This document shows, in pieces, positions 1 to 18,461 of a stretch of 64,000 nt of DNA. The DNA lies in the NCBI GenBank assembly GCA_963759805.1, contig CAVXAT010000001.1:256001-320000 (forward strand), in the 5' to 3' direction. The DNA is from an uncultured bacterium (lineage in GTDB: Bacteria; Babelota; Babeliae; Babelales; RVW-14). Position 1 is the stretch's first letter. Every line of letters begins with the position of its first letter. The notes under the pieces were generated by a model that made no database searches, had not been told where the DNA came from, and saw nothing but the letters and a program-made list of their open reading frames with translations. Made by a program: the position numbers and the translations under genes.

Positions 1-1516
1 TGGCAAGGCCGTCTACAAACGTTCTATCATGTGAAACAAATAAAATAGTTCCGGGATACTGATTTAATGCTTTTAATAAAATCTCTTTTGTCTGAAGGTC
101 AAGGTGGTTAGTCGGTTCATCAAGAACCAGAAAGTTGGCATCCAGAAGTAGCGTTTTTACCATTGCTACTCGGTTTTTTTCTCCGCCGCTGAGCACCGAT
201 ATCCTCTTTTCAACATCATCGCCTGAGAACAGAAATGCACCAAGCAAACCGCGTACGTGTGATCGCATTTCCGACGTTGTGCATATGCTCTCCACCTCTT
301 CCAAAATTGTTCTATTTTTATCAAGCGTTAACTCTTGATCCTGTTCAAAAAAAGCCATCTCAACGTTGTGTCCAAACTTTAGCGTACCACCCTCCAGGGG
401 ATATTTCCCTGCAATTAAATTCAACAGGGTGGTTTTGCCCTTTCCATTTGCAGCTACCAGCGCTACTTTATCACCGCGCATAATATCAAACGAAACGTTT
501 GCGAATAACTCAGTAGAATCAAACGTTTTTTTTAGATTGCTAACTTTGAGTACGATATCACCCGAGCGTTTAATATTTGAAAAATTAAGTTTAATCGTAG
601 GAGGTTTGGGTTCAACTTGAATAAGCTCAATTTTTTCAAGAGCTTTGAGCATGCTTTGTGCCATGCTTGCCTTTGTGGCCTTGGCTTTAAAACGATTAAT
701 CGTCTCCATCGTCTTTTTAATATGTCTTTGTTGAGCTTCATACTGAGCCTGCAAAACTGCATCATCATTAGCCTTTTGCTCCAGATATTTTGTATAATTA
801 CCACGATAAATTTTTAAATTTCCTCGATCGATATCAAAAATATACTGGCAGAGGTGATCCAGAAAATAGCGATCGTGACTTATAAGAATAAAACCAAAAT
901 TGGCGTATTTTAAAAAATCCAAAAACCAGTCTTTTGCAACGATATCAAGGTGGTTTGTAGGCTCGTCAAGAAGATAGAAATCTGCTTTTTGTAGAAGTAA
1001 TTTTGCAAGTACAATTCGCATTTTCCAACCAACGCTGAGCTCGCTGACCGGCTTGCCAATTTTTTCTGATGGAAATCCAAGCATAGACAGCATCTTTTTT
1101 GTTTCAACTACGCACTGGTCAAAGTCGTGCTCAGATAACTCTTTTTGTAAAAAAGCAAAGCGTTCAAGTTTCTCAGGGGTGTGTGCCGATTCATGCTCAA
1201 ACTCAGAGTTGAGTAAATCAAATTCAAGCTTCAAATCTACTAAATTACCAAATGTTGTTAGTGTTTCTTCAATAACAGATCTATTGGAGACTAGGACGAC
1301 TTCTTGCGGGAAATAGGCAATTTTAACTCGTTTCTCAATCAGAATGGTTCCGCTGTCAATTCCTTGCTGTCTGCTCAAAACTTTGAGTAGTGTTGATTTT
1401 CCACTTCCATTTCTACCGACAAGCCCGATTCTTTGGTTTTTTTCAATAGAGAAAGAGAGATCTTTAAATAACTCACGTTGTCCAAATTCAAGGCAGATAT
1501 TAGAGGCTGTTATCAT
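1..1516 (-). CDS. ABC-F family ATPase (3' end runs off the window)
   Basis: Manual minus-strand translation from ATG 1516 (MITASNICLEFGQRELF) shows two ABC cassettes: GRNGSGKST, LSVGWKMR, LLDEPTNHLD, then AANGKGKTT, LSGGEKNR, VLDEPTNHLD. No TM segments. Absent from the ORF track because there is no stop in the window. Confidence 0.93.
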   Translation of the reverse strand, partial: MITASNICLEFGQRELFKDLSFSIEKNQRIGLVGRNGSGKSTLLKVLSRQQGIDSGTILIEKRVKIAYFPQEVVLVSNRSVIEETLTTFGNLVDLKLEFDLLNSEFEHESAHTPEKLERFAFLQKELSEHDFDQCVVETKKMLSMLGFPSEKIGKPVSELSVGWKMRIVLAKLLLQKADFYLLDEPTNHLDIVAKDWFLDFLKYANFGFILISHDRYFLDHLCQYIFDIDRGNLKIYRGNYTKYLEQKANDDAVLQAQYEAQQRHIKKTMETINRFKAKATKASMAQSMLKALEKIELIQVEPKPPTIKLNFSNIKRSGDIVLKVSNLKKTFDSTELFANVSFDIMRGDKVALVAANGKGKTTLLNLIAGKYPLEGGTLKFGHNVEMAFFEQDQELTLDKNRTILEEVESICTTSEMRSHVRGLLGAFLFSGDDVEKRISVLSGGEKNRVAMVKTLLLDANFLVLDEPTNHLDLQTKEILLKALNQYPGTILFVSHDRTFVDGLA

Positions 1517-2894
1517 CTTCAATTTTCCCGAAATTTCCGCGTAATTTTCTTATGTAAATTAGAGCAATTATTGCTGTTGCTACAAAAAATGAGGAGTAAA
1601 CCAGAGTGAATTTTATGATGATACTCTGAATTTGTGAATGGCTTATTAACCATGATACAGGAACAAAAAATAATAAACAGATGAGGAATCTTCCCCACAT
1701 GACGGTTTTAACATTTCCGGCTCCACGTAGAGCGCCGGCAAGTACGACCTGTAATCCGTCAAAGATGGCCATAAAATTTATGAATGGAAAAGCGATAACT
1801 GCAAAATTAGTAAATTTGTTTTTGGGGTCAAATAAATTTATAAAGTAATGAGACCCAATGGTTAAAATTATCAAAACGGGAATAAAGGTTAAGGCTGTTA
1901 CTATCAGTAATTTTTTAATGTTAGCAATTGCCCCATTAGTATCTTTTGCCCCAAGTCTGTTACTTACAAGAAATGTTATTATTTGAGCTGATGCCATGAC
2001 CGGTAAAAATGAAAACATACTTAAGCTTCTTATTACATTGTATGAAACAATGGCATATTTACCCATTGGGGTTATCATTGTCACAAGCCAGATGTGGGAC
2101 AGTGACATTGTGGTTTTATCAATAACGATTGGCCAACTCATTGATATTATTTGGATAATCTTTTTTATATCAAAAAATGACTTTAAAAAATTAGGGAAGT
2201 ATTTTCGGTAATTATTATTAAATAAAACGTAGAGTATGGCAATCAGACTCATTGCCGTGTACTGAATTATGCTTGCAATTGCTGATCCGGTTAAGCCGTA
2301 CGCGCAAAATCCGAATTTACCAAAAACTAGTGAATAATCAAAAAAGATGAATATTCCTATTCCCACGAGATTGAGTATCATCGGAATGTGTGTGTTTTTG
2401 ACAGCTCGCATGAATCCCATAAAAACCATTACGGAAAAGATAAGAACTATTCCCAACGATTTTAACTGCAAGAAGGGTATTCCAACATTTGTCATTTTGT
2501 CCGAAACCCCTAACCATCCAAAGATGCTTTTGGCTCCGAACAGTATTAGAATAAATTGCGAAATACCAAGAATAAAAGTGATCCAGAATGTGTTATAAAA
2601 GTATTCGCCGCATTTGTGAAAATCGCCACTTCCATTGAATCGCCCAATAAAGGCTATTGAGGCAACCGGAACGGCTTCTGCAAGTTTTGTCAGCGTTATC
2701 AGGATGTTGGTTGCCATTCCTAGGGCCCCAAATGTGGTTACAGACCTAAGGTTGGCAATAATGAAAGAGTCGATAATGGAGGGTACAACAAGCAAAATCG
2801 AGATGGAGACTATCTCCGGAAGCCAGTACAGAATGATATCTTTGTATGAGTCGCCTTTATAGAAGTCGCCCTTAATTGTATTCATAAGTCCCAA
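1500..2894 (-). CDS. MATE family efflux transporter
   Basis: 464 aa, about 12 TM segments, MATE motifs (GFMRAVKNTHIPM, GLTGSAIASII, GALRGAGNVK). Confidence 0.88.
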   Translation of the reverse strand: MGLMNTIKGDFYKGDSYKDIILYWLPEIVSISILLVVPSIIDSFIIANLRSVTTFGALGMATNILITLTKLAEAVPVASIAFIGRFNGSGDFHKCGEYFYNTFWITFILGISQFILILFGAKSIFGWLGVSDKMTNVGIPFLQLKSLGIVLIFSVMVFMGFMRAVKNTHIPMILNLVGIGIFIFFDYSLVFGKFGFCAYGLTGSAIASIIQYTAMSLIAILYVLFNNNYRKYFPNFLKSFFDIKKIIQIISMSWPIVIDKTTMSLSHIWLVTMITPMGKYAIVSYNVIRSLSMFSFLPVMASAQIITFLVSNRLGAKDTNGAIANIKKLLIVTALTFIPVLIILTIGSHYFINLFDPKNKFTNFAVIAFPFINFMAIFDGLQVVLAGALRGAGNVKTVMWGRFLICLLFFVPVSWLISHSQIQSIIIKFTLVYSSFFVATAIIALIYIRKLRGNFGKIEDDNSL

Positions 2895-2974
2895 GTACCC
2901 CCAATTTAATGCCGGTTTTAATGACGATCTTTAATCATAGCATCAATATTTACAAAGGAAAAGGCTTTTGTCCG

Positions 2975-4036
2975 CTATTTTTCGATTTTTACAACCCCAT
3001 GATCATCTTTGATCTCTAATTTGGTCCCAAATTCAGCGCTCAATTTTTTCATATGGTTTAGAATTTTCTGAGCCAAATCGTTTTTGGCTAAATTTACCTG
3101 CATTTCGGAAATATAAACAGGAATTAGCTCGATTCTCTGGATTCCATCTTTTGTTATTTTTGCCTGAAATAAAAAAGAGTGATCATTGTGTTGATCCGGA
3201 TAAATCATGTAATCATCAATAAAATCTCCGGCGCTGTATATAATTACTTTGCCGTTATAAACTTCAATCCCATGGAATAGATGTGCGCTGTGGCCGTGAA
3301 TTAAATCTGCACCGCAGTCAATTATTTTATGTGCAAACTCAACCATATTTTTTTCCGGGCGTTCAATTTTGTTTGGGCCCCAATGTATTGAAACGATTAA
3401 GACGTCAACCTGGTTGCGTACTGATTTTATGTCGTGTTCTAATTTTTCAATTTGTCCGATTCTGGCATAATTTATGCCGGCTTTTTCGGAAGTTGCTGCC
3501 CAGTCCGGTTCATTGTCCGTGTATCCAATTACACCTACTTTTATTCCATTTTTCTCAAGAATTTGAATTTTGCGAGCTTGGTTAATATCTTGTCCTGCTC
3601 CGACATGCTTGATTTTTTTACTATCAAGTACTTGAGTTGTCTCCAGGAAACCTTCTTCGTTAAAATCAAGAATGTGGTTGTTTGCAATATTTACAAGACT
3701 GATATTTGCTTCAACTAAAGTCTGAACGTTATCCGGATCAAGTTTGAAATTAAAGACTTTAAAAACACGCTTTTCGCTTTTGGTTATTGTTGTTTCAAGA
3801 TTGATAATATTAAAATCATTTTTCTTTAATAGTGGAAGAATATCTCCCCAAGGATGTGCATATCCATGAGTGGTAATTGACTGATTTACTAGTCGTCCAA
3901 GCATGACATCGCCCGTCAGGCCTATGACGATAGATTTCTGTTCATGTAGTCTGTTGAGAATAAGATATGCGCTGGCAATAAGAAATGTTCCCCAGAACAG
4001 TAATTTGCTTTTTTTCATAAACTGACCTTTTTTCAT
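2975..4036 (-). CDS. CapA/PgsA-family metallophosphatase with N-terminal membrane anchor
   Basis: GDVMLGR, INLE, ANNHILDF, SIHWG and GHSAH motifs. Confidence 0.9.
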   Translation of the reverse strand: MKKGQFMKKSKLLFWGTFLIASAYLILNRLHEQKSIVIGLTGDVMLGRLVNQSITTHGYAHPWGDILPLLKKNDFNIINLETTITKSEKRVFKVFNFKLDPDNVQTLVEANISLVNIANNHILDFNEEGFLETTQVLDSKKIKHVGAGQDINQARKIQILEKNGIKVGVIGYTDNEPDWAATSEKAGINYARIGQIEKLEHDIKSVRNQVDVLIVSIHWGPNKIERPEKNMVEFAHKIIDCGADLIHGHSAHLFHGIEVYNGKVIIYSAGDFIDDYMIYPDQHNDHSFLFQAKITKDGIQRIELIPVYISEMQVNLAKNDLAQKILNHMKKLSAEFGTKLEIKDDHGVVKIEK

Positions 4037-4199
4037 AAACTAACCCTTGTAAATTTAAATTAACCCCTGTGAATTATTGCTACAGTTAAAGATTTTTTGC
4101 TAAACAGGTTTGTTTTTGCTAACATTCTTTAGCTTAGCCTTTAGCTTAGCATGAAAATATTGTTTTAAAATACTGTTTTAAAAATTGAAGGGGCCACTA

Positions 4200-4751
4200 A
4201 TGGCAAGTTTTAACCGTGTTATTATGATGGGCAATTTGACAAGAGATCCTGAGTATAAACAACTTTCTTCCGGGCAAGCTGTTTGTCGTTTGGGATTGGC
4301 ATCAAATCGTCAGTTTAAAAATAAACAGACAGGAGCGATGGTTCAAGAGGTCTGTTTTGTCGATGTTGATGTATGGGGTCCTCAGGCTGAAGTTTGCAAG
4401 CAGTATCTGCAAAAGGGGCGTCCGGTTTTGATTGAGGGTCGGTTGAAACTTGATACCTGGCAGGATCAAGAAGGGGCCAAACGCAGCAAGCATTCAATTG
4501 TTGCGGATAGAGTAACATTTTTGGGCGGAGCATCAGCTCAGGAATCTGACGAGACGGATTTTAATGTTGCTGCAACTGATCCGATTACTCCTGCAAAATC
4601 TGAAGCTAAACCTGAAGCTGAATCTAAGCCTGAAGCCGAAAATGAAAAAAAGCCTAGCACTAGAAAAGCTAAGACTATTTCGTCTGAGGCTTCGACCGGA
4701 GAGGTTGCACTCAAGGACGAGGCGCCATTCGAGAATGATTTGCCATTTTGA
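4200..4751 (+). CDS. ssb: Single-stranded DNA-binding protein
   Basis: MASFNRVIMMGNLTRDPE OB-fold start and acidic tail ending NDLPF; ATG at 4200. Confidence 0.97.
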   Translation: MASFNRVIMMGNLTRDPEYKQLSSGQAVCRLGLASNRQFKNKQTGAMVQEVCFVDVDVWGPQAEVCKQYLQKGRPVLIEGRLKLDTWQDQEGAKRSKHSIVADRVTFLGGASAQESDETDFNVAATDPITPAKSEAKPEAESKPEAENEKKPSTRKAKTISSEASTGEVALKDEAPFENDLPF

Positions 4752-4753
4752 TT

Positions 4754-4816
4754 AGTTAGCTTATTGATTTTAAATTAATTTACGCCGGAGGAAGTAGTAA
4801 AAGCCTTGGCGTTTTC
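4754..4816 (+). terminator. 3' element/terminator, copy 1 (weakened stem)
   Basis: AGTTAGCTTATTGATTTTAAATTAATTTACGCCGGAGGA...CCTTGGCGTTTT; near-identical to 7106-7168. Confidence 0.65.
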
Positions 4817-4841
4817 TTTCTTAATTTTGTTTGGGAGCATT

Positions 4842-7094
4842 ATGAATATTTATTTTAGAAAAAACAGAGCATTGATTTCAAAAGTATTGCTGATAATTTT
4901 TGGTGCGAATTTTGGATTATCTTTTTTAGCCGCTGAGACGCAAGCATCTGGGGTACAAACATCCAGCGGGGTACAGACATCAAGCGCTGTGGATAATCGA
5001 CAAACCGTTTATTCGAAAATTTCGGATATGCATATGCCTTCTGTAAAAATGGAGGATTCTAAAGAGCAATCTGAAATGAAAAAAAAACAGGAGGAGAACG
5101 ATAAAGCTTATAATGAGATGCTGACCAATGCAAAGTTTAAAGAGATTAAAATTCCTGCAGTTGGGGATATTGAAAAGCTAAGATTGATATATCAGCTTTT
5201 TCATGGGCGCAGTTTGCAGCTCAATGATGTTATTGGTTGTAGTCGTCCGGTTCTTAATGACAATGTTTTTACCGATTTGCAGATCTACTGTGGTTCGATG
5301 ACCGATTTAAAGCACCATGTTTTTGGGGTTATTGATAATACAGTTACAAGTTTTGGTAAAGTTGAGTTACAACGCTTTTTATATCAAAGGTCTGATTCTG
5401 TTGAACAACTTAAATATGAAATTAAGAATAGGCAGGATATTGTAAAATACCTGGTTGAAAATCCATTTTTGTGCGACAAAATTGAAAAGCAGCTTAAAAT
5501 TGTTAAGCAGGGTGAGACGGATATGCTCTGGTTTTGGAAGGCGTTGGAATTTTCAATCCAAAAATATACTGAGCAGTATTATTTTAAGGGATTTTTGTCC
5601 GGATTAAATGAATCCACAGGGCCTCTTGAACTCCAATCTCTTATGACTACAGTTGTTGCTCCTGCAGACGTAGCTCTTATGGATGCTTTTATGGTAGGAG
5701 TTGGCGCAATTGTGTTGTATAAAGCTTCAAGAGTAGAAAACCTTTGGGCTATGGGTGGGGCAGTTGCCTACTCTGGCCTTTTACTTTTTGGCTCTTATAT
5801 GATGACAAGTATGATTCTTGGATTGGTTCAAACTTTCAATGGCATAACAAATGATATTCAGGATAAGCTGGCAAGTACGGCAAGAATAACGCAAGCTTCT
5901 GCAGCGCTTGCAAAAATTCTAGCTTCTGATGCCAAAATGCCAGTGCTTTGGGATAATTTCAAGAAACTGCAAACAAGTGCGATGCAGGCTCAAGATGGTC
6001 GTGATTTACAAGATCTGTTAAAAAAATTACAGGCAGGAACATTTAAAAGCGAACCTTCATATTTTTCGAACAAAGGGCGAGTGCTGGCGACTTGTAAAAA
6101 GATGTTGCGCTTGAAAGACAATTTTATCAATTCGATTAAGGCCATCGGCGAACTTGATGCATATCTCTCGATTGCAAAGCTCTATTTAAAACATGTAAAC
6201 AATTCTAATGCAAAATACTGCTTTCCTGAAATTATTGAATCAGACAGGCCGTATGTTAATGTAAGCAGAATGTGGCATCCATTTCTTAATCCTGACAAAG
6301 TTGTTACTAATGATATTGAACTTGGACAGGATCAGGCTCAACGAGACTCGTCTCAAAATGTTATTTTGACAGGTCCGAATGCTGCGGGTAAATCAACATT
6401 CTTAAAGGCTTTCACAGTCTCATTAATTTTGGCACAGTCTTTTGGTATAGCTCCTGCCAGTGCAATGAGATTTACCCCATTCATTAAAATCAATACTTAT
6501 TTAAATATATCAGATGAAGAGGGTAGGGAGTCGTTGTTTCAGGCCGAAATGCGACGAGCTCAAGAGCTACTTCGTTCAATCAAGGGGTTGAAAAAAGGTG
6601 AATTTAGCTTTGTTATTATGGATGAAATTTTCACTGGCACAAATCCAAAAGAAGGAACTGCGGGTGCATATGGGGTGGCAAAGAGCGTGTCTAAATATCT
6701 ACAATCAATCTGTATTGTTGCAACACACTTCAAGAAACTTACAGAACTTGAAGAGGATACGAATGGAAGATTTAAGAATTACAAAGTCTATGTAAATAAA
6801 TCTGATACGGGTGATATTGATTATCCTTATAAAGTTGTGCCTGGAATTTCAGATCAAACAATAGCGTTACTGTTATTGGAGAAACAGGGCTTTGATCGAG
6901 AGATTTTGGATGAGGCTTATAAAGCGTTTAATGATGATGAATATGTTCTTGATAGCGTGAAGGGTGAACCTGCTAAACTGGTTCGTGTAGTTGATTTAGG
7001 GGCTGAAGCTGGTGAATATGTTCTTGATAGCGTGAAGGGTGAACCTGCCAAATTGGTTCGTGTAGTTGATTTAGGGGCTGAAGCTGCAGCGTGA
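4842..7094 (+). CDS. MutS-related ATPase (domain V without mismatch-binding domain), with signal peptide, TM hairpin and duplicated C-terminal peptide
   Basis: LTGPNAAGKST, SLFQAEMRR, MDEIFTGT and ATHF motifs; hydrophobic N-terminus and central TM segments; GGGAG RBS before ATG 4842. Confidence 0.88.
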   Translation: MNIYFRKNRALISKVLLIIFGANFGLSFLAAETQASGVQTSSGVQTSSAVDNRQTVYSKISDMHMPSVKMEDSKEQSEMKKKQEENDKAYNEMLTNAKFKEIKIPAVGDIEKLRLIYQLFHGRSLQLNDVIGCSRPVLNDNVFTDLQIYCGSMTDLKHHVFGVIDNTVTSFGKVELQRFLYQRSDSVEQLKYEIKNRQDIVKYLVENPFLCDKIEKQLKIVKQGETDMLWFWKALEFSIQKYTEQYYFKGFLSGLNESTGPLELQSLMTTVVAPADVALMDAFMVGVGAIVLYKASRVENLWAMGGAVAYSGLLLFGSYMMTSMILGLVQTFNGITNDIQDKLASTARITQASAALAKILASDAKMPVLWDNFKKLQTSAMQAQDGRDLQDLLKKLQAGTFKSEPSYFSNKGRVLATCKKMLRLKDNFINSIKAIGELDAYLSIAKLYLKHVNNSNAKYCFPEIIESDRPYVNVSRMWHPFLNPDKVVTNDIELGQDQAQRDSSQNVILTGPNAAGKSTFLKAFTVSLILAQSFGIAPASAMRFTPFIKINTYLNISDEEGRESLFQAEMRRAQELLRSIKGLKKGEFSFVIMDEIFTGTNPKEGTAGAYGVAKSVSKYLQSICIVATHFKKLTELEEDTNGRFKNYKVYVNKSDTGDIDYPYKVVPGISDQTIALLLLEKQGFDREILDEAYKAFNDDEYVLDSVKGEPAKLVRVVDLGAEAGEYVLDSVKGEPAKLVRVVDLGAEAAA
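6939..7088 (+). repeat. Two tandem 75-bp units encoding EYVLDSVKGEPAKLVRVVDLGAEA; third copy at 10011-10091
   Basis: Units start at 6939 and 7014; internal differences are synonymous. Confidence 0.95.
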
Positions 7095-7105
7095 TAGATA
7101 ATAAA

Positions 7106-7168
7106 AGTTAGCTTATTGATTTTAAATTAATTTACGCCGGAGGAGTTAGTAAAATCCTCCGGCATTTT
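7106..7168 (+). terminator. 3' element/terminator, copy 2
   Basis: Stem GCCGGAGGA/TCCTCCGGC followed by T-rich sequence. Confidence 0.8.
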
Positions 7169-7210
7169 AATTGGTTTTTTTATTGCGAGCTTTTTTGTAA
7201 TAGGTGTGTG

Positions 7211-8428
7211 ATGAGAAATACTTTTGAGCGTTGGTTTTTTAGATTAGCGTTGCTGTCTTTTTTATTACTAAATTCTTTGTGCTTAAACGGCATGGCTTCG
7301 AGTGCTGGTACTGAGCAGCAACAAATCCCAGCAGACCAAAAAGAAGAGTTATCTGAGCTCAATAAAGAGTTTGGGACTGTAGCTGCTGAGTTTGACAAAG
7401 AGCTTCCAGCATTACAGTCATTAAGAGAAGAGTTTAGTAAATTTTTAGATGATGTAGATTTGAATGATTCTGGATGGTTTAAGGATTTTAGAAACAAAGT
7501 ATTGTATGAATTGCCGACAGAAGGCTCTTTTACTATGGGCATTTATGGTGAAGATGTTTTACATTTACTGTTTTTAATTGCATATGTCTTTGTTGATAAG
7601 ATTTTTTTTGATAATGTGAAAAAGTATTATTTCCAAATGGTTTCTAGTAATTTCAAAGAAAAACGAGAATTGTTGCGATCTTGTTATAATGAAATTTCCG
7701 GCTTGGAGACAAAGAAATTCTTAGAAAATTCAAAATTAAAACAAAAATTCATAAAAGATTGTTGTTCTAGTTTGAATATCGATCGAGGCCTTGATTATAG
7801 GCTGTTCTCTAACATTTTTATTAATCTGTTTTTTAAAGAGATAGTTAAGTTCTTTGAACATCAGGTATTTCCCTTCGGCAATACAGGATTCTTTGCACTT
7901 TTAAGAAAGGAAAAAAAGAATGCGGAACGCCATGTTGTTTCTCTTTATCCGTTTATTGAATTCTATTTGAAGCCGTATTTTTTTGGAATAACTCCGTTTG
8001 TAGAAGATAAAATGCCTGTGGTGAGGGGCTTTTTGCTTCGACTGGTTGGATGGGATTATAAAATTTTATCGTCGTATGGTTTTGATTTGTGCAAACGAAC
8101 TATGGTTTTAGGGATATTTTTGAAGAGATTAACCGTGTGGTATCAAAACTTATTTAAAGTCTATCTTGATAAAAATATGGAACTATTTTTAAAGATTTTA
8201 TCAGATTTAAATGCGACAAGTGCAACGGATGATGAGCATTTCAAGGCAGCGGAAACAGAACTTAAGGATTTTATTACAAAGGGCTTTGAGTGCTCTTTTA
8301 AAACATGGTTTGATTATAAAAATAGCTGCTGTGCTAACTTTGGTCTGCTATTTGAAACGGTGCTATTATTGCCGGCTATTTGTAAGGGTGGAAAATTAAT
8401 TTACGATAATTATGCTGCGAAAGGTTAA
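7211..8428 (+). CDS. Hypothetical membrane/exported protein
   Basis: About 405-aa ORF with signal-like N-terminus (LALLSFLLLNSLCLNG), a coiled coil and hydrophobic stretches; closely coupled to the next gene. Confidence 0.75.
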   Translation: MRNTFERWFFRLALLSFLLLNSLCLNGMASSAGTEQQQIPADQKEELSELNKEFGTVAAEFDKELPALQSLREEFSKFLDDVDLNDSGWFKDFRNKVLYELPTEGSFTMGIYGEDVLHLLFLIAYVFVDKIFFDNVKKYYFQMVSSNFKEKRELLRSCYNEISGLETKKFLENSKLKQKFIKDCCSSLNIDRGLDYRLFSNIFINLFFKEIVKFFEHQVFPFGNTGFFALLRKEKKNAERHVVSLYPFIEFYLKPYFFGITPFVEDKMPVVRGFLLRLVGWDYKILSSYGFDLCKRTMVLGIFLKRLTVWYQNLFKVYLDKNMELFLKILSDLNATSATDDEHFKAAETELKDFITKGFECSFKTWFDYKNSCCANFGLLFETVLLLPAICKGGKLIYDNYAAKG

Positions 8429-8432
8429 GTAT

Positions 8433-10091
8433 ATGGATTTTGTAAGTAAGTGGAGAGAGCGCTTAGGTTGTAGTGGATATTTTAAGATTTTGATATTTGG
8501 CTTAGGGTTTACGTGTTTAAATAACGCTTATGCAATGCAAGGTGGGCATGGAATTCAAGATGCGAAGTGGTTACAGGATTTAGCTAAGGAAATGGAGAGA
8601 GCGGGAGAGAATTTTGCCAGGGAGAGAGAGGATCACAAGCGAGAGAATGCACATCAAGAAGAATGGTTAGTTGATGAGATACGAAATTTGAAAGCGAATG
8701 GTGTTGACGATAGTGATCCACGAATAAAGCAGGCAGAGAGAAGAATCGGAGAATTAGCTCAGGAAAAACAGACGCAAGATAAGATTGGTGATTTCGGGCT
8801 AGATGTTGTAAAGGGAGTTTGGGGCGCTGTTTTGGGGGATTATAACAAAGAGCAACGTATTGAAGAGGTGCAGAGAAAAGCATTGGCGGATGGTTTTATG
8901 AATAATAAAGGAGCAAGAGAGCGCCTGCAAGCGCTTATGGACCGGATGAAGGATCCAGAGCAGTTATTAAAGTTTGCTATTTTTGCTGCCGGTGTAACAC
9001 TCGGCGTTGTTGGTGTTTATTACGTGGTCAAATTATTTTATCAGTATGTTGAAGCCAGAATGGGCAAACCAAATCTTGTTAGAGAGTCTTCAATTCATGG
9101 ATTTAAACAGGCATTGAAGAAATTCGTGATTTCGATTTTCAGCGGCGAACAGGATCTTGAAGCTGTTCTGAGTGATATTATTTTATCACCTGACATTCAG
9201 GAGAAAGTTTACTTGTTGGCAGATGACACGAAGAACACAAAAGAGTTTAATTTGCCATACCAAAACGTTTTATTTTACGGTCCTCCGGGAACAGGTAAAA
9301 CAGAGTTTGCAAAAATTCTTTCAAGATATTCAGATATGGATTATGCAGTACTTTCGGGCGCCGATTTTAGTCAGTTTAAAAACGGAGAAGGCATTACAGA
9401 GTTGCATAAGTTATTTGAATGGGCAAATAAGAGTAAGCGCGGTTTGATTATTTTTATAGATGAGGCGGATGCCTGTTTTAGAGATCGTGCAACGCTTGAT
9501 AAGGATGGTGTCAATCTTGTTAACGCTTTCTTGTCTCATACGGGATCAAGCTCTGATAAATTTATGATTATTCTTGCTACAAATTATGAAAATGAGCTTG
9601 ATGCAGCGGTTAGAAGCCGTATTCACAAAAAGGTTCCATTCCTATTACCGGCACTTGAAGAACGCTTTAAAATTTTTAAGTTAAAACTTACAAAGTATGT
9701 TCTTAACGATAAGCGTGCTTATTACAAAGAGGGTGTTTGGGTTGAAGAACATCTTGAAGTTGAGGCTGCAGTGGATGATGCATTCTGGAGAGAGATCTCT
9801 ACGCGAACTGAAGGCTTTTCTGGCCGTGACATAGACCAAGCGATTGGTGAAATTAGATTGCGTGCGTATCGTTCAGGCGCTAATCTTGTGACAAAAGAGA
9901 TTGTCGAAACCGTTATTAAAGATAAAATTGCTCAGATAAAGAAAGATAAAGAGTCAACAGAGTATCAAAAGCAGAAGTTTGAGCATATGTTTAATATTCA
10001 TAAGAATGATGAATATGTTCTTGATAGCGTTAAAGGCGAACCTGCTAAATTAGTCCGTGTATCTGATTTGCCAGCTGATGCTCTTGCTTAA
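8433..10091 (+). CDS. AAA+ ATPase, ATAD3-like, with signal peptide, coiled coil and TM segment
   Basis: [15 protein letters not shown], ILATN and EGFSGRDI motifs; pre-AAA segment [16 protein letters not shown]. Alternative start at 8412. Confidence 0.88.
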   Translation: [552 protein letters not shown]

Positions 10092-10102
10092 GAAAGAACG
10101 AA

Positions 10103-10165
10103 AGTTGGTTTGTTAGTTTTAAATTAATTTGCACCGGCGGAAGTAATAAAATCCGCCGGTTTTTT
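10103..10165 (+). terminator. 3' element/terminator, copy 3
   Basis: TTTTAAATTAATTTGC then stem ACCGGCGGA/TCCGCCGGT and a T tract. Confidence 0.8.
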
Positions 10166-10175
10166 ACACTTTATA

Positions 10176-10222
10176 CCGCTCGTCCTGAGTGATTTGCGTA
10201 GCAAATCGTATCGAAGGATGCG
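10176..10222. repeat. REP-like palindrome, left arm of a 47-bp inverted repeat around the GIY-YIG gene
   Basis: CCGCTCGTCCTGAGTGATTTGCGTAGCAAATCGTATCGAAGGATGCG; exact reverse complement at 10599-10645. Confidence 0.95.
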
Positions 10223-10296
10223 AGTTGTCACTCAGCATGAGCGGAATCGTATCGACGGATGAAGCGGCGTCAACGCAGTGCACTGATGGGAGAGAT

Positions 10297-10590
10297 ATGG
10301 AATATTTTTATGTCTATATTTTAAAATGCAGCGATGGATCTTACTATACTGGGCACACCGACAACATTGAAGCACGTATATCTCAGCATCAACAAGGCTT
10401 GATAAAAAGTTGTTATACTGCAACCCGGTTACCGGTAATTGTTGTTTTTGTTCAAACATTTGGAAGCAGGAATGAAGCATTTATTGCTGAACGCAAAATA
10501 AAGGGTTGGTCGAAATCCAAAAAAGAGGCTTTAATAAGGGGGGATTGGGGATTGATTTCATTTTTATCAAAAAAAATATTTTTAAAATAA
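10297..10590 (+). CDS. GIY-YIG nuclease (UPF0213/YhbQ-like)
   Basis: FYVYILKCSDGSYYTGHT, RISQH and AERKIKGWSKSKKEALI; ATG 10297 follows GGGAGAG. Confidence 0.92.
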   Translation: MEYFYVYILKCSDGSYYTGHTDNIEARISQHQQGLIKSCYTATRLPVIVVFVQTFGSRNEAFIAERKIKGWSKSKKEALIRGDWGLISFLSKKIFLK

Positions 10591-10598
10591 ATGTTGGC

Positions 10599-10645
10599 CG
10601 CATCCTTCGATACGATTTGCTACGCAAATCACTCAGGACGAGCGG
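10599..10645. repeat. REP-like palindrome, right arm
   Basis: Perfect reverse complement of 10176-10222. Confidence 0.95.
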
Positions 10646-10779
10646 CCAGTGATGGTATGTCGGGATGGGTAGTCAAAAAATTTGCGAATTCCAGGTTGGT
10701 GCAAATCCCAGATTAGGTGGAAAAAATCTATGTCTGACTGTTATAACGAACGTGCACGCTTAGGGCTTTTAAAAAAATT

Positions 10780-10800
10780 AGGGCCGCAACTCGCGGCCCT
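10780..10800 (-). terminator. dnaK intrinsic terminator
   Basis: AGGGCCGC-AACTC-GCGGCCCT hairpin flanked by A/T tracts. Confidence 0.75.
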
Positions 10801-10840
10801 TTGAAACGATTACTTCAGAATATTTATTTTCTTAGTTTGC

Positions 10841-12772
10841 TTACTTCTTTTCTTCGAAGTCTGTGTCGATTGGTTTGTCATTTGGGTTACTGTTCTCGCC
10901 GGATTTATTGTCATCGGTGCTTTGGTTACCGGAAGTTTGTTGCCCTTCGGGGCCAGCCTGTTGCTGCTTCTCTTTGTATAAAATTTCGGCAATTTTGTAC
11001 GATGCTTGAATCAGATCATCAGCTGCTTTTGCAAGTGCTTGTGCATCATTCTCATTTTCTTTAAGCGCTTTTTTAGCAGTTTCAATTGCAGCTTCGACAC
11101 TGTTTACTTCAGCGATTGGAAGTTTGTCTTTGTTCTCTTTGATTGTCTTTTCGATCTGCATGATTGTACTGTCCAGATGATTGCGCTTGTCGACAACTTC
11201 GCGTTGTTTTTTGTCATCTTCCGCATGTAGTTGTGATTCTTTTACCAGCTTATCAATCTCTTCTTTGGAAAGACCTGAGGATGATGTTATTGTGATGTTT
11301 TGTTCCTTGCCGGTTCCAATATCTTTTGCCGATACGTGAACTATACCATTTGCATCGATGTCGAATGTTACTTCGATTTGTGGCATGCCGCGTGGGGCTG
11401 AAGGGATTCCATCTAATCTGAATCTACCTAGCGTTTTATTATCTTTGGCAAATTCTCTTTCGCCTTGTAGAACATGGATGTCAACAGCAGTTTGATTATC
11501 TTCAGCTGTTGAGAAAGTTTGTGATTTTTTTGTTGGAATAGTAGTGTTACGTTCAATGATTTTTGTTGATACGCCGCCCATTGTTTCAATACCAAGTGAG
11601 AGGGGGGTTACATCGAGCAACAGCACGTCCGTTACATCTCCGCCCAGAACGCCGCCTTGAATTGCAGCTCCGACAGAGACAACTTCATCGGGGTTTACAG
11701 ATTTATTTGGCTCTTTGCTAAAGAAATCTTTAATCATAGATTGTACTTTGGGGATTCGGGTTGAACCACCAACCAATATTACCTCTTGAATTTCTTTGGT
11801 TGTAAGCCCTGCGTCAGCGAGTGCCTTTTTGCATGGTTCGAAGAGCTTGTTGAAAATATCTTGGCAAAGATTTTCAAATTTTGCTCTGGACAATTTGAGT
11901 GTCAAATGTTTTGGGCCGGTTGCATCTGCGGTGATATATGGAAGATTGATTTCAGTTTCAGTTGTAGAAGATAGCTCGATTTTGGCTTTTTCGGCAGCCT
12001 CTTTTAGTCGTTGTAGTGCAAGTTTGTCTTTTTTTAAATCGATACCATTTTCTTTTTTAAATTCATCTACTAAGAAATTTATAATTTTTTCATCGATATT
12101 GTCACCACCGAGCATTGTGTCGCCATTTGTGGATTTAACTTCGACTACTCCATCGCCAACTTCTAATACTGATATATCAAATGTTCCTCCACCGAAGTCA
12201 AAAACTGCAATTGTTTCGTTTGTTTTTTTATCCATCCCGTAGGCGAGTGCTGCGGCAGTTGGTTCGTTGATGATTCGTTTTACGTCTAGGCCCGCGATTT
12301 TACCGGCATCTTTGGTCGCTTGACGTTGTGCGTCATTGAAGTATGCGGGAACGGTGATAACTGCAGAGACAATTTTTTCGCCCAGATAATCCTCGGCCGC
12401 TTGTTTTAATTTCTGCAGAACGGCTGAAGATATTTCTTGTGGTGAAAGCTGCTTGCCTTGAATTTCGATTGCAACGTCGCCATTACTGGCTTCAACCATC
12501 TTATATGGGACAAGATGCTTTTCCTCGCTGGTTAAACTTGAAAATTTGCGGCCAATGAATCTTTTGGCAGAATAAATTGTGTTTTCTGGGTTTGTTATTG
12601 CTTGACGCTTTGCAATTGCGCCGACTAAACGTTGTCCGTCTTTTGTGAATGCAACGATGGATGGGGTTGTGTTGGCACCCTCCTGGTTTGGGATGACTTT
12701 GAAAGTTCCCGCTTCCATTACTGATACAACCGAGTTAGTTGTACCTAGATCTATTCCTATAATTTTTGCCAT
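10841..12772 (-). CDS. dnaK: Chaperone DnaK (Hsp70)
   Basis: [19 protein letters not shown] and [15 protein letters not shown]; full length. Confidence 0.99.
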
Positions 12773-12866
12773 TTGTTTATCCTTATTTAATCAAGATTCA
12801 ATCAAGATTTTAGTTTTAAATCTAATAAATTCTCATGTCTATGTCTTATTTTTTCATACTAAGCTT

Positions 12867-12895
12867 ATTTTAGTCACTTAATGAAGGTAAGTCAA
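12867..12895 (-). promoter_or_regulatory. Sigma70-type promoter of dnaK
   Basis: Minus strand TTGACT-17 bp-TAAAAT. Confidence 0.7.
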
Positions 12896-13305
12896 GTAAA
12901 ATATTAGAAAATCTTAGCGTAACACACTAAGATTTTTGGTCCGGTTTGGGTGGGGGGCATGTCAATGTCGTGTAAATAAATATTATGTAAAAGAAGGGGG
13001 TGCGCCCAGGCTGGCAGGTGAGTGCGACGAGCACTTTTTGCGATTTGCGCGATTCGGCACTCCGTCTCACCCCGCCAGCCAATTACATGGGGGCTTGGGG
13101 GGATTTACGTGGGCATTTTTCGTGGGGGAAATTACGGGGGTATTTTGTGGGGATTTTCGTGGGTGTTTTTATGAGGCTGGTGGGGTTCGCCTCCGTGCGA
13201 ATGCGTGGGATAAACCATGGGGGAATATTAATGTGTAATATTTATATTGGAGGAGTGGGTATGAGGGTAAGTGAGTATGAGCATATAGGAATATTATTGA
13301 TCCAT

Positions 13306-13392
13306 GGATCCTGAATCAAGTTCCCGGCCTTCGCACAAGGCTACGGCGGACGCAGCAGGATGACAAAACTCAGGATGACAAAACTGAGGATG
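13306..13392. repeat. Nested REP-like palindromes plus 15-bp tandem repeats
   Basis: GGATCCTGAATCAAGTTC[CCGGCCTTCGCACAAGGCTACGGCGGACGCAGC]AGGATGAC followed by CAGGATGACAAAACT repeats. Confidence 0.8.
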
Positions 13393-13856
13393 GGATATTT
13401 ATATTCAGGATACATGATAAATGACAACAATAGCTGTACATGTGTTATATCAAGATAAAGACAATAAGCTGTGCATGCGTTCTACATACATACGTTCTAA
13501 TTGCATTAGAGGGAGGGTGCAGACATAACTAAAAAAGGAGCGTGCTAGATGGTGCGTAGATTGAGCTAGGTTGCGTACACATTTATATATATGCATGTGC
13601 ATGTATATACACGCGCGCGTATATATTACCAATCGCACGATAACATGTAAAACTTAGGCTTAAAAACCCCAAACGATCTTAATTAATAAATTAAACTTAT
13701 CAAAACTAAATTAACTCAAAAGTTTCAAATTAAAATTTTTAATGGTTGCTGAAAAACTTAAATACAGAGAACACCAAAAAAGGGAAAAGCGCGACGTTGT
13801 AAAAAAAGGCGTATATTTTTTTTGCACTTAATTGTGTTGAGGATTATTTGGGATAT

Positions 13857-15254
13857 TTAAAGTATAAAAAAAGCGAGTAATGCAATCGCTATTGATAATA
13901 CTAAGTAACGTGGGTTTGCATGAAATTTAGGTTTAATCTTCCATATGGAGTAAGCGTTTATTGATACCATGGCAAAGCTTAGCATCTTTATACTTATAAT
14001 TCCAAGTAAGATCGTTGAAAGTGTCTGACAGTGTTTTGAATAACTAATGAAAATATAGAAAATTGTGAACTCTAAGGCTTTGTAGCAAAAAAGCCTAAAA
14101 GACTTCTCTTCCATGACGTAAAATTGCTCATAAAGTGATGTTACAAAATCTATTATTTGAATAGTTAAGAAAAGTAGGGCCAATCCTATTGTTGCGGTGC
14201 TTAAATTTGAACAGTTAGCATAACGAAGTATTTTGGAGTGGTTTATAAAGAGAATAATTATAAGTGGACCAAGCAGTGTTGAAAGCTTTCGAGTTATTAG
14301 CTCAAATGCATGTTGTTTTTCATGCGGGGAGCTATTTTTTAGATTGGCAAGAATAGCATTACCCAGATATCCAACTGAAATTTTAAACATTGATTGAATG
14401 AAGTGTGCAATGACGGCAGCCAGATAAAAAAGTCCTGCATACTCAAACCCAAACTTTAAAGCGAAAAATGGTGTAAGGAAGTTTGATGTGAAAACTTCGC
14501 GACTTAGACGTAGAAGATAATTAAAAACTTTTGCATTAATAATTCTGTTTTTAATCTTAACCGGCAAGCTTACCTCTGCTGAGGGAAGGTTTTTATATAT
14601 CTTATAAAATAAAGAAGAAAATATGATTGTTACCATTAATGAATCAACTATATGAAAAACTAATATACTTTTTAAAGTAATAGGTAAATTAAATAGAATA
14701 TATGGAATCCAGATCAAAGTTAAATAAAATAAAAATGAAGCCACATCAATAAAAACGGTCTTTTTGCACTCAAGGCTTGTGTAGAGAAAAAGACGTAAAA
14801 ATGATCTGATTGATTCGAGTACAATGGTCGATAATATTGCAATAAGTGTTAAAGTATCGATACTTGGAGCTCTATAAAACACTAAAAATATGGAGGCAGT
14901 TACTGCTGTTAATAAAAGCAGTGGAATATGGGGCAATAAATAAAATCTAAAAAGAAGACGCTTAAAGTTTTGCTTGCTTTTAATAAATAGATGAAAGAAT
15001 GGAAGAATTGAAGTGCTGGCTCCAAAGTCTGCAAACTTTGTTACAAGATAGATAAATGATAAAGTGCTTGCAATAAGCCCGTACTCTCTAGGCATTAAGT
15101 AATAAGTTAAAAGTATATTATGGACTGTTTTAGAAGTTTCATAAATGATGCTTCCCGTGACAGCCCAGCGGAAACCCTTGTGGAATCGTGCTTCAAGCAA
15201 ATTTAATTCATTGGGGGAGGGAAAGTATTCTATATTTTTATGAGTCATAAACAA
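13857..15254 (-). CDS. Polytopic membrane protein, probably polysaccharide flippase (Wzx-like, MOP superfamily)
   Basis: About 12 TM segments; N-terminal LMPREYGLIA...FADFG resembles Polysacc_synt proteins. Confidence 0.6.
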   Translation of the reverse strand: MFMTHKNIEYFPSPNELNLLEARFHKGFRWAVTGSIIYETSKTVHNILLTYYLMPREYGLIASTLSFIYLVTKFADFGASTSILPFFHLFIKSKQNFKRLLFRFYLLPHIPLLLLTAVTASIFLVFYRAPSIDTLTLIAILSTIVLESIRSFLRLFLYTSLECKKTVFIDVASFLFYLTLIWIPYILFNLPITLKSILVFHIVDSLMVTIIFSSLFYKIYKNLPSAEVSLPVKIKNRIINAKVFNYLLRLSREVFTSNFLTPFFALKFGFEYAGLFYLAAVIAHFIQSMFKISVGYLGNAILANLKNSSPHEKQHAFELITRKLSTLLGPLIIILFINHSKILRYANCSNLSTATIGLALLFLTIQIIDFVTSLYEQFYVMEEKSFRLFCYKALEFTIFYIFISYSKHCQTLSTILLGIISIKMLSFAMVSINAYSIWKIKPKFHANPRYLVLSIAIALLAFFIL

Positions 15255-15258
15255 CCTT

Positions 15259-15315
15259 CTTGTCCGTCGACTTGTCCTCCGACCTGTCCGTCGTAGCTCG
15301 GAGAGCGAAGTCGGA
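15259..15315. repeat. REP-like palindrome with partial duplicated copies
   Basis: CTTGTCCGTCGA CTTGTCCTCCGA CCTGTCCGTCGTAGCTCGGAGAGCGAAGTCGGA; same family as 48185-48212. Confidence 0.75.
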
Positions 15316-15739
15316 AAAAATCCTTTTCAGTCAAATTACTATAACAAGGCTTTTGCGTTTTGTAAGCGCTTTATTGATAAAAATACTAAATACTTAATTT
15401 TAGTGTTGATTTTATGTATTTTAAATATGGTGCAATTAAATGAGGGTTAGGGGGGAAGGATTTGGGGGTTGCGCATTGGGATAATAAACAGCGCAACCTC
15501 TATTTCTTTTCTTTGGATTTCTTCAAAAGTCCTAAGGGGGAATAAACGGAAGTACCATAAGATGTATGTTTGCTATTAGAAATTGAAACACATGTTATTA
15601 CATTTACTTTTCTATGCAGCTTGTAAGATAATTATTTTTTCTGTTATAATCATTTTATCTGTGGTCTGTGATTTACGTGTGGCGGGGAAAGTTTTCAGCA
15701 GACAAGAGTTTGTCGGAGACAATAGTCTGAGGGAATATC

Positions 15740-16297
15740 ATGTTTGAGCCCAATGATAAGGTTATTTATCCAGGACATGGCGTTGCAAATGTTGATGGTG
15801 TTATCGAGAAAAACGTTGCTGGTTCAAGTGTAAAATTTATTAAACTCTCTTTCATATATAAGGATATGACCATTTTGGTTCCAGTTTATAATGCTGATTC
15901 TATTGGTCTACGATATATTAGTTCGCAAACAACCATCGATCAGGCATTAAAAGAACTCAAGAAGGAACCGGAGAAGAAGTTTGAGGGGATTGATTTTACT
16001 CCCAGCGGTTGGAATAGAAGGAATAAGGATTATCAGCTGAAAATTCAAGGAGGAAAACTTCTTGATGTTATCAGAATATATCGCGATTTGATGTATATTG
16101 CTCAACAAAAAGAGTTGTCATTCGGCGAAAGAATGCTCTTACAATCAATAGAAGATCTTTTAGCCCAGGAAATTCAATCCGGAAGAAACATTTGTCGCGA
16201 AGAGGTTATCCAAGAATTACGTTGTCACTTCAAGCAGTTATTGAATGTTCCGACATACTCAAAACTTAATGTAAAAAATGGTGTTCAGGCTGCTTAA
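15740..16297 (+). CDS. carD: CarD family transcription regulator
   Basis: FEPNDKVIYPGHGVANV, IGLRYIS and WNRR motifs. Confidence 0.9.
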   Translation: MFEPNDKVIYPGHGVANVDGVIEKNVAGSSVKFIKLSFIYKDMTILVPVYNADSIGLRYISSQTTIDQALKELKKEPEKKFEGIDFTPSGWNRRNKDYQLKIQGGKLLDVIRIYRDLMYIAQQKELSFGERMLLQSIEDLLAQEIQSGRNICREEVIQELRCHFKQLLNVPTYSKLNVKNGVQAA

Positions 16298-16314
16298 AAT
16301 ATTGCAGGCTATGC

Positions 16315-17316
16315 ATGCACTCTAATCTTAGGGCTTTGATAATCACTGGCCCAACAGCATCAGGTAAAACACAACTTTCAGAGATGATTGCCTCCAAACG
16401 TTCATGCGAAATAATTAATGCCGATGTGGGACAATTTTACAAGCCACTTTCAATTGGAACGGCAAAGCCCGATCTGGCCAATGTTCCATACAAACACCAT
16501 TTATTTGACTTACTTGATAAATCTCAAGATTTAAGTGTTGTGAAATATCGAAAGCTTGTTATCGACTTGGTAAAAGATATCTGCGGACGGGGCAAAATTC
16601 CAGTTATTGTTGGCGGTTCTCTTTTTTATATCAAGTCGCTGTTTTTCCCGCCTCTTTGTCATCCTGAACTTGATTCAGGATCTATCCAAACTCTTGCTCC
16701 TTTAAATATTGATAATCTAAGTAAAAGTCAGCAATGGGAGTTGTTACGCCAAATTGACCCGGAAAGAGCTGCAATGCTTCATCCAAACGATAGTTATAGG
16801 ATTGGGCGAGCATTGGCAATCTGGAAGAAAACGGGAACAGTACCGTCAGCATATAACCCTTTGTTTGATCCAGCATTTAACGCATTAATTGTTTATATAA
16901 AGCCCGATCTTACAACATTAAAAGATCGTATTTACTTGCGAACATCTTTAATGATAAATCCTGAAGATCGGCCAGGGTGGATTGATGAGGCTCAGGGTTT
17001 GGTTGGGACAGAATGGGAAGAATTTTTAAAAACCAAAAATCTAATCGGGTACACCGAAATTTTTGACTGGATCAAGGCCGGCAAAAAACAGGCTGAGCTT
17101 CCTGCTTTGATTGAGCGAATTCAAACTCAGACTATCCAATATTCCAAACGCCAAAAAACTTTTTGGAAAAGTTTTGAGCGTAAAATTTTGCAGGCATTTT
17201 CAGAATCAGACTTTTTAGTTCAAACGAAGTTTGTTCAGATGACGTCTGTCGGTTTGCCGGACGACCAAATTTTGAATCAAGTTTTAACGGCATGGGATAA
17301 CTTTTCAAATAACTAA
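16315..17316 (+). CDS. miaA: tRNA dimethylallyltransferase
   Basis: ITGPTASGKT, SIGTAKP, VGGSLFY, HPNDSYR and YSKRQKTF. Confidence 0.95.
   Translation: MHSNLRALIITGPTASGKTQLSEMIASKRSCEIINADVGQFYKPLSIGTAKPDLANVPYKHHLFDLLDKSQDLSVVKYRKLVIDLVKDICGRGKIPVIVGGSLFYIKSLFFPPLCHPELDSGSIQTLAPLNIDNLSKSQQWELLRQIDPERAAMLHPNDSYRIGRALAIWKKTGTVPSAYNPLFDPAFNALIVYIKPDLTTLKDRIYLRTSLMINPEDRPGWIDEAQGLVGTEWEEFLKTKNLIGYTEIFDWIKAGKKQAELPALIERIQTQTIQYSKRQKTFWKSFERKILQAFSESDFLVQTKFVQMTSVGLPDDQILNQVLTAWDNFSNN
16657..16683. repeat. In-frame palindrome in miaA (CHPELDSGS)
   Basis: TGTCATCCTGAACTTGATTCAGGATCT is the reverse complement of the outer element at 13306. Confidence 0.85.
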
Positions 17317-17589
17317 TTCAATTTATTAAATTAATTTAAAATAGAAAACTTACAGTATTGGGGTAATTTAGTGCCATATTTATGCCAATAATTTACTGGA
17401 CAGAATCCAAAAACGTTGCTTAAAATTGATTTTTATTTGAGTTGCCTTCTGGGTTCGATCTGGACGTTGTTTTAAAGGGGCATTTATTGCAGTAAAATTT
17501 TTTGAAGACCAAATTATGGCTTGATGTTAAATTTGATGCTAAAGTGATTATCCAAAAACAAATTAAGTTAATAAGTTAAAGGGAATCTA

Positions 17590-18279: not shown

Positions 18280-18329
18280 ATTTAGATTTAAGTTAAGCCA
18301 ATTTTTATCGTTTACATAAGGGTTTTGTA

Positions 18330-18351
18330 TCCCCAGAAAACTCTGGGGGTA
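18330..18351 (+). terminator. Hairpin, probable terminator
   Basis: CCCCAGA-AAAC-TCTGGGG. Confidence 0.5.
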
Positions 18352-18461
18352 AATATTTGGTATTGGAAAAAACGTTGTTATCCTGTAAACTCTGTTATTG
18401 AAAGTTGTTGTAATTAAGAAATTTAGTATTACTAAAACGTAAGGACAGAAAGGCTTTTTCG

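Follow-up and report, generated by a model that had tools for sequence, protein, structure and literature searches.

An AAA+ ATPase family of Babelota as a bacterial branch of ATAD3, with a linked upstream gene

The window analysed here, a stretch of 64,000 nucleotides from an uncultured member of the Babelota, carries on its + strand, at 8433..10091, an open reading frame of 552 amino acids that encodes an AAA+ ATPase of the ATAD3 clade. Babelota, also known as Dependentiae or TM6, are bacteria that parasitize protists. The gene has ssb, a MutS-like gene and dnaK as neighbours, on a 360-kb contig of a 1.5-Mb genome; contamination was ruled out, as this contig also carries recA and relatives of the ATPase occur in 115 genomes. 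Immediately upstream, at 7208..8428 on the same strand, lies a gene for a nearly all-helical protein of 406 amino acids with a predicted signal peptide, which stops 4 bases before the ATPase start; an alternative in-frame ATG at 8412 would lengthen the ATPase by 7 residues. Scans for promoters and terminators gave no signal above the level of shuffled sequence, and positions 1-20000 of the window contain no Rfam matches.

The original prediction had described the ATPase as a protein with a signal peptide, a coiled coil and a single transmembrane segment, followed by the motor domain. Hydropathy analysis returns two hydrophobic peaks, at residues 11 and 181. The first belongs to a predicted Sec signal peptide (residues 1-34, 8433..8534), called from hydropathy together with a cleavage site between AYA and M, and the second to a single membrane segment at approximately residues 180-200 (8970..9032; Kyte-Doolittle 2.11), which aligns with the position of the inner-membrane segment of ATAD3. 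Hydropathy thus agrees with both of these predicted elements. The region between them (residues 43-172, 8559..8948) is long, helical and coiled-coil-like, with AlphaFold helices at 43-88, 96-152 and 160-172, but profile-profile comparison with the N-terminal region of eukaryotic ATAD3 gives a probability of just 0.2%. Downstream of the membrane segment follows an ATAD3-type linker motif, recognized from conservation among the aligned sequences (residues 205-220, 9045..9092), and then the AAA+ domain (9180..9962), with Walker A K289, Walker B D343/E344, sensor N384, arginine finger R396 and a pore-loop-1 region of the same length as in the outgroups. All the motifs quoted in the original prediction were found, namely residues 205-220, ILSP, 278-294, 300-309, 323-347 and 364-384. 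The protein ends in an 18-residue tail (10008..10061), present in the homologue P0004 and missing from P0003, of which two further copies end the neighbouring MutS-like ORF. The AlphaFold model, based on a 27-row alignment (mean pLDDT 77.6), shows a helix spanning residues 175-209 and a classical AAA+ domain, and structure comparison places the fold close to FtsH, p97 and the proteasome ATPases. A Pfam match to Zot was rejected as a generic P-loop overlap.

A homologue search in which 8000 candidates were scored and 2293 passed found, among the best 120 of these 2293, that the closest matches beyond Babelota are eukaryotic ATAD3 proteins, with 37-38% identity and E-values of approximately 1e-60. 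The first named eukaryotic protein among these 120 is beetle ATAD3A (E 5e-60; 37% over 356 columns, in an alignment that runs from the membrane segment on), and the identity to Hondaea ATAD3 is 38% over 326 columns. The top solved structure is Cdc48 (E 8e-26), FtsH is matched at E 8e-22, and no ATAD3 chain stands among the top solved-structure matches. For each of the 184 Babelota-type sequences compared, an ATAD3 outscores all 19 outgroups. The catalytic residues are kept in 98-100% of 185 Babelota-type sequences; in the linker, P213 is present in 100% and L215 in 92-100% of these 185 and 127 eukaryotic sequences. Babelota and eukaryotic proteins are built in the same order, with a helical region, the single membrane segment, the linker GKPxLVRE(S/T)S and the AAA+ domain, and in both the family-specific motifs flank the two Walker boxes. 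The likeness beyond generic AAA motifs, originally proposed from a comparison with human ATAD3A, accordingly holds when it is checked through other named ATAD3s.

There are also differences from eukaryotic ATAD3 (ATAD3A/B/C; PF12037 and PF00004), an AAA+ protein of the mitochondrial inner membrane. Babelota proteins have a predicted Sec signal where ATAD3 has its own N-terminus, and most of their N-terminal region is not alignable. The window ATPase scores 14.8-16.9 bits against Pfam ATAD3_N (PF12037), below the cut-off of 25, with a match to the last 40 positions only (E 0.018). Nine of 10 relatives tested pass this cut-off, 8 of the 10 having been picked because of a precomputed hit, and for the relatives P0025, L191 and L256 the match extends over longer parts of PF12037, even though coiled-coil composition can mimic such matches. 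In addition, the Babelota pore-loop region is longer by one residue, and the ATPase is paired with a partner gene for which the searches made found no eukaryotic match.

From FtsH, Cdc48/p97 and the proteasome-type AAA proteins, with which it shares the fold, the Walker, sensor and arginine-finger residues and the length of the pore loop, the Babelota ATPase is separated by the long branch that leads to the clade it forms with ATAD3, and its matches to them are at 1e-26 or weaker. FtsH is anchored by two membrane segments at its N-terminus and carries an M41 protease domain at its C-terminus, both absent here; the ATPase reaches 77.8 bits against TIGR01241, whose cut-off is 600, and the FtsH of the same genome is a separate gene. 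Likewise, Cdc48/p97 possesses an N domain and two tandem ATPase domains, whereas the Babelota protein has a single ATPase domain and scores 65 bits against TIGR01243 (cut-off 802).

The original prediction missed both a large family spread through the phylum and its conserved upstream partner. Matches at E 1e-35 or better were found in at least 115 of 261 Babelota genomes, a number that represents a floor because five candidates were scored per genome; five closed or near-closed genomes that were negative remained so, 5 of 5, after all their candidates had been scored. This genome itself holds five copies, of which one is truncated at the end of a contig and another is fragmented. Two divergent paralogues (C2:183103-186384 and C8:9805-13381) are each followed by the same two genes, which had no other match among the loci collected.

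Outside Babelota, with three or four candidates scored per genome, the family was not found in 401 alphaproteobacterial and 300 gammaproteobacterial genomes sampled. Asgard matches at 1e-36 to 1e-38, obtained from six of 151 genomes, were rejected as family members since the ones included in trees grouped with the outgroup. A metagenome scan yielded 144 confirmed loci, of which 80 were kept; a bacterial-type protein is encoded by 26, and 17 of these have the partner gene, while the remaining 54, eukaryote-type or without an ORF, all lack it. The GTDB-wide scan filled up with generic Walker motifs after 1 of 64 parts and so carries no information on other phyla; the loci it yielded entered the analysis solely as outgroups or search centres. 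On viral contigs the Babelota-type loop pattern occurred in 31 stretches, none of them a relative, and the best match of a generic scan of 5 of 64 parts was E 9e-16; plasmids gave generic FtsH-type matches and nothing closer. Look-alike clusters in the ESM Atlas carry the labels Bdellovibrionota and Chlamydiota, with a known phylum for 6 and 8 of their members, and may represent members beyond Babelota or mislabelled genomes. Such taxon labels can be wrong, given that one match labelled Epsilonproteobacteria is identical at its start to a protein encoded by a genome within the family to which the window belongs.

Phylogenetic trees were computed on the core from the membrane segment to the C-terminus, leaving out P0117 and P0188, which have duplicated segments, and with FtsH, Cdc48-type and archaeal AAA sequences as outgroups, among which no Bcs1, Msp1 or Vps4 was knowingly included. 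In the first mixture tree (LG+C20+F+G4; 35 Babelota-type, 19 eukaryotic and 8 outgroup rows) Babelota and eukaryotes group together at 100/100 and the eukaryotes at 99/95; monophyly of Babelota is not rejected (AU p 0.40). Divergent eukaryotes were then added, those named being Plasmodium, Cryptosporidium, Porospora, Perkinsus, Marteilia and Fonticula. A FastTree with 107 eukaryotic rows retains one eukaryotic clade (support 99), and the final 60-row mixture tree gives 100/100 both for Babelota plus ATAD3 and for the eukaryotes. The placement among ordinary bacterial AAA ATPases, which would have spoken against ATAD3 homology, was looked for in these trees and did not occur. Judged from its sequence and this clade membership, the Babelota ATPase is a true ATAD3 relative. 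The root lies among Babelota lineages in all trees, at only 84/80 in the final mixture tree, and Babelota form one clade in 0 of 200 bootstrap trees of the two mixture analyses.

A further character is found in the pore-loop-1 region, measured from the conserved Gly after Walker A to the LF before the conserved Trp. This region counts 17 residues in 265 of 265 measurable eukaryotic ATAD3 sequences (7 were unmeasurable). Among 185 Babelota-type sequences it counts 18 residues in 161, 19 in 16 and other lengths in 7, and never 17 (1 unmeasurable), with 18 in the window ATPase. Since 20 of 22 outgroup sequences also have 18 residues, the deletion being present in 2 of 22, the short eukaryotic loop is the derived state, and its absence from 184 Babelota-type sequences renders descent from any sampled eukaryotic lineage unlikely.

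These data bear on the proposal, contained in the original prediction, that the gene was acquired from a host. A recent donor within crown-group eukaryotes, which would leave the Babelota proteins nested in eukaryotic ATAD3, would agree with the eukaryotic identity of the best non-Babelota matches (among the best 120 of 2293) and with the failure to find the family in the alphaproteobacterial, gammaproteobacterial and Asgard genomes sampled. Moreover, the eukaryotic sample contains no named Discoba, Amoebozoa, Metamonada or red algae, most of its rows being unnamed, and AU tests leave some room for nesting. Nine topologies were compared under LG and C20, with group labels that stand for tree clades with few named members. 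A sister position of Babelota to the animal-containing group or to the stramenopiles is rejected under both models (p 0.002-0.03) and one with the green-plus-signal-bearing group under LG only (0.04), not under C20 (0.10); four other nested placements are rejected under neither model, so that 5 of 7 survive under C20 (p 0.07-0.25). On the other hand, the eukaryotes form their own clade with the high support given above, and the deletion is universal in their measurable sequences, so that nesting of the Babelota proteins would need a re-insertion. A recent capture from a host is unlikely on these grounds, and we regard a crown-group donor as very doubtful indeed.

The alternative voiced alongside it, that of a relative of the ATAD3 ancestor, fits better. 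We propose that the divergence between the Babelota family and eukaryotic ATAD3 preceded the separation of the sampled eukaryotic lineages. The AU tests allow Babelota and eukaryotes to be sisters (p 0.32 under LG, 0.47 under C20), the competing placement being that eukaryotes arose inside Babelota. Capture from a stem eukaryote is possible, the loop deletion being one character that gives no direction for a transfer before the crown group. Conversely, eukaryotic ATAD3, an essential ATPase of the mitochondrial inner membrane, might have originated as an envelope ATPase in a Babelota-like intracellular bacterium. The transfer would predate the last eukaryotic common ancestor, with the orientation of the ATPase kept and the Sec signal swapped for mitochondrial targeting. 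This tentative scenario, which we hold to be somewhat unlikely, draws on the root among Babelota, the derived eukaryotic deletion and the closeness of L256 to fish ATAD3. L256 has 47.6% identity to the latter, above all but one bacterial relative, and keeps the long loop; together with L191 and L192 it is sister to eukaryotes under LG (SH-aLRT 92), a placement not recovered under C20.

At L256:2-1279 the ATPase is followed by tandem signal-bearing ORFs with one common C-terminal tail, one of them ankyrin-like by eye. Signal-peptide-like N-termini also occur in 30 of 113 Met-starting eukaryotic ATAD3 representatives (P0272, P0299, P0336 and relatives); one clade, shared with plant and green sequences, takes in 21 of the 22 that were included in the tree, and two have a Peptidase_S74-like N-terminal match. 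These proteins are possibly paralogues targeted to complex plastids.

The partner gene is linked to the ATPase. A profile search detects it in 55 of 261 Babelota genomes, all within the 115, and the ATPase is present in 55 of 55; an iterated profile finds 44 members among the collected loci and this genome, where both partner copies precede an ATPase copy. Following subtraction of 8 second pieces of split matches from 78 rows, 70 partner loci remain, with 56 ATPase places unlisted. In 60 of these 70 the partner lies directly upstream of a listed ATPase, 33 of the 60 being adjacent by construction as seeds of the profile; in the absence of the seeds the proportion is 27 of 37. Seen from the ATPase side, a partner precedes just 60 of 150 listed genes. 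Tandem duplication of the pair is seen, and the genes that flank the pair in L237 and L238, two close relatives, are 50 kb distant from it in this genome, which indicates that the pair moved as a unit. The model of the partner is a mostly helical chain (pLDDT 81.7), with a membrane-segment score at the N-terminal stretch only. No Pfam family is common to more than one of 33 members, and no PDB sequence match, no Foldseek match at E 0.001 and no usable ESM Atlas match was obtained (best VIA Z 6.0); a further search gave 5 unnamed homologues. On the evidence of these sequence comparisons, ATAD3 has a real bacterial branch that extends across the phylum, has a dedicated partner and lies outside the clade of the eukaryotes sampled.

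A third gene of approximately 700 amino acids with a signal peptide, near universal in Babelota (255 of 261), is a predicted outer-membrane barrel (L193:1033-3315; in this genome C1:6775-8898) with neither a Pfam match nor a PDB sequence match; its C-terminal aromatic motif is presumably a beta-barrel signal. Among 55 genomes with both genes listed, it neighbours an ATPase copy in 13, which belong to just two families and do not include the present genome; the profile, built from ATPase-adjacent copies, favours listing adjacent ones. As the gene is near universal and the adjacency is limited to two families, this may be a local arrangement.

The periplasm contains no ATP, so the ATPase motor must either stay inside the cell or leave it. 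A hydrophobic N-terminus is present in 125 of 142 full-length family members, versus 1 of 115 eukaryotic ATAD3s of set 1, and in 207 of 382 long ORFs overall; a signal found in more than half of the long ORFs says little by itself. Exactly one internal hydrophobic segment exists in 142 of 142 full-length sequences, with an uncharged core in 144 of 175. Net charge is higher on its C-terminal than on its N-terminal side in 109 sequences and lower in 41, a modest positive-inside signal. On a membrane insertion scale with approximate values, the segment of the window ATPase scores -0.3 and the family has a median of +1.6 (below zero in only 21 of 181), which is like eukaryotic ATAD3 at +1.7 and unlike the anchors of this genome's FtsH, PpiD-like and RNase Y proteins at -1.0 to -3.9.

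The reading that we prefer, to which we assign a probability of roughly one half, is that the Babelota ATPase acts in the bacterium's own inner membrane, in the orientation of ATAD3, as an envelope scaffold or remodeller working with its partner. The Sec signal would be cleaved after AYA and the segment at 180-200 would halt transfer in SecY, so that the motor is predicted to face the cytoplasm while the helical arm extends into the periplasm. ATAD3A has its ATPase in the matrix and an N-terminal region that contacts the outer membrane (PMC8763711), and it has been proposed to be a scaffold (PMC8785211); the predicted orientation would parallel this, with the matrix equivalent to the cytoplasm and the intermembrane space to the periplasm. 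The ATPase would assemble as a hexamer, bind the exported product of the upstream gene, and couple the inner membrane to the outer layers in an ATP-driven manner during growth inside the host. The single internal segment, with a topology that matches ATAD3A, the 55 of 55 linkage with pairs duplicated and moved as a unit, and the barrel gene adjoining the ATPase in 13 of 55 genomes are consistent with this scaffold. It is weakened by the low hydrophobicity of the segment across the family, with TMHMM reported to find no segment in three Babela massiliensis members (supplementary data of PMC4378268), and by the many ATPases that have no partner upstream. Moreover, the family is dispensable and present elsewhere in up to five copies, and a gene absent in some genomes and expanded in others shows a pattern typical of effectors.

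This patchiness and the weak, mitochondrion-like segment would suit a different fate, which we consider a serious contender even if the odds are against it: the whole ATPase would be exported by Sec, delivered with its partner through type II secretion or outer-membrane vesicles and inserted in a host membrane, that of the vacuole or of the mitochondrion, where it would reshape mitochondria by imitating or opposing the ATAD3 of the host. Export finds some further support in a motif of a small residue plus Met after the hydrophobic stretch, carried by 78 of 155 family members versus 65 of the 362 further long ORFs whose N-terminus is hydrophobic, which resembles the style of the signal-bearing tandem ORFs beside the L256 copy. 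A type II secretion system is poorly suited to a substrate with a conserved uncharged membrane segment, making the ATPase an awkward cargo. Babela has signal-bearing Ulp1-AAA fusions thought to act in the host as well as a type II system (PMC4378268). Chromulinavorax multiplies while enclosed by an expanded mitochondrion of its host, and it seems to release vesicles (PMC6561590). However, the segment of the window ATPase is hydrophobic enough for stop-transfer, the Babelota proteins are not mimics from any sampled host lineage, and the hydrophobic N-terminus is too common among long ORFs to say much by itself. The bacterium's own inner membrane fits a cleaved signal and one membrane segment at least as well as a host membrane does. 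If export were true, the family would provide a candidate means by which some Babelota reshape host mitochondria.

The intact motor residues, the fold match to FtsH, p97 and the proteasome ATPases, and the one-to-one pairing and co-duplication with the partner could also be read as signs of an inner-membrane quality-control or export motor in the ATAD3 orientation, pulling the partner as its one substrate in the manner of Bcs1 or Msp1. This appears improbable to us, given that the partner carries its own predicted signal peptide and so needs no other exporter, and that the ATPase has no protease domain. In addition, the pore-loop-1 position that is mostly aromatic in FtsH and Cdc48 sequences is Lys in 55% of family sequences, a usual residue that makes substrate threading not the favoured job and leaves the envelope scaffold as the preferred role.

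ATAD3 has been said to exist only in eukaryotes (PMC7663417). In the literature searched, with most subscription journals outside it, no description of the Babelota/Dependentiae/TM6 family as ATAD3 was found. Pagnier et al. 2015 (PMC4378268, supplementary file 9) list an expanded family 2 of Babela massiliensis as 'CDC48-like AAA ATPase'. It comprises three genes of 506-532 amino acids, SignalP positive and with the layout of the Babelota ATPase family, whose eukaryotic best hits are Ostreococcus, Medicago and Ciona, and two of the three follow a hypothetical gene of one cluster. The term 'ATAD3' is missing from the main text and nine supplement files of that paper, and the parts of it available hold no tree, topology or partner analysis of family 2; 'AAA' does not occur in the main texts of Deeg 2019 and Yeoh 2016. 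A protein described as eukaryote-only has bacterial relatives, and the origin of ATAD3 thereby becomes a testable question, between a non-alphaproteobacterial symbiont as its source and passage from a stem eukaryote to an ancient parasite. The bacterial branch also offers simple proteins for structural and biochemical work, plus a candidate partner.

Some neighbouring features of the window deserve mention. The MutS-like ORF (4806-7094) has MutS domains III and V, a signal-like N-terminus and hydrophobic segments, and would thus be an apparently exported MutS-type ATPase; its relatives occur in 33 of 35 genomes of the family, with up to six per genome. It ends with two copies of the C-terminal tail of the ATPase (window 6935-7169; 10007-10166), and since its orthologues in the genus match only up to residue 710-729, this tail looks like a recent duplication of the 3' end. 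An intergenic palindrome downstream of the ATPase is also found downstream of the MutS-like ORF and of ssb (4754-4806). At 10176-10645 a small GIY-YIG nuclease gene lies between perfect 47-nt inverted repeats; a second copy on contig C9 is 83% identical and many lone repeat copies are scattered through the genome, so that nuclease and repeats look like a mobile element. Finally, an exact 190-nt tandem duplication at 34263-34642, possibly an assembly artefact, adjoins repeat-protein genes at 34618-36294.
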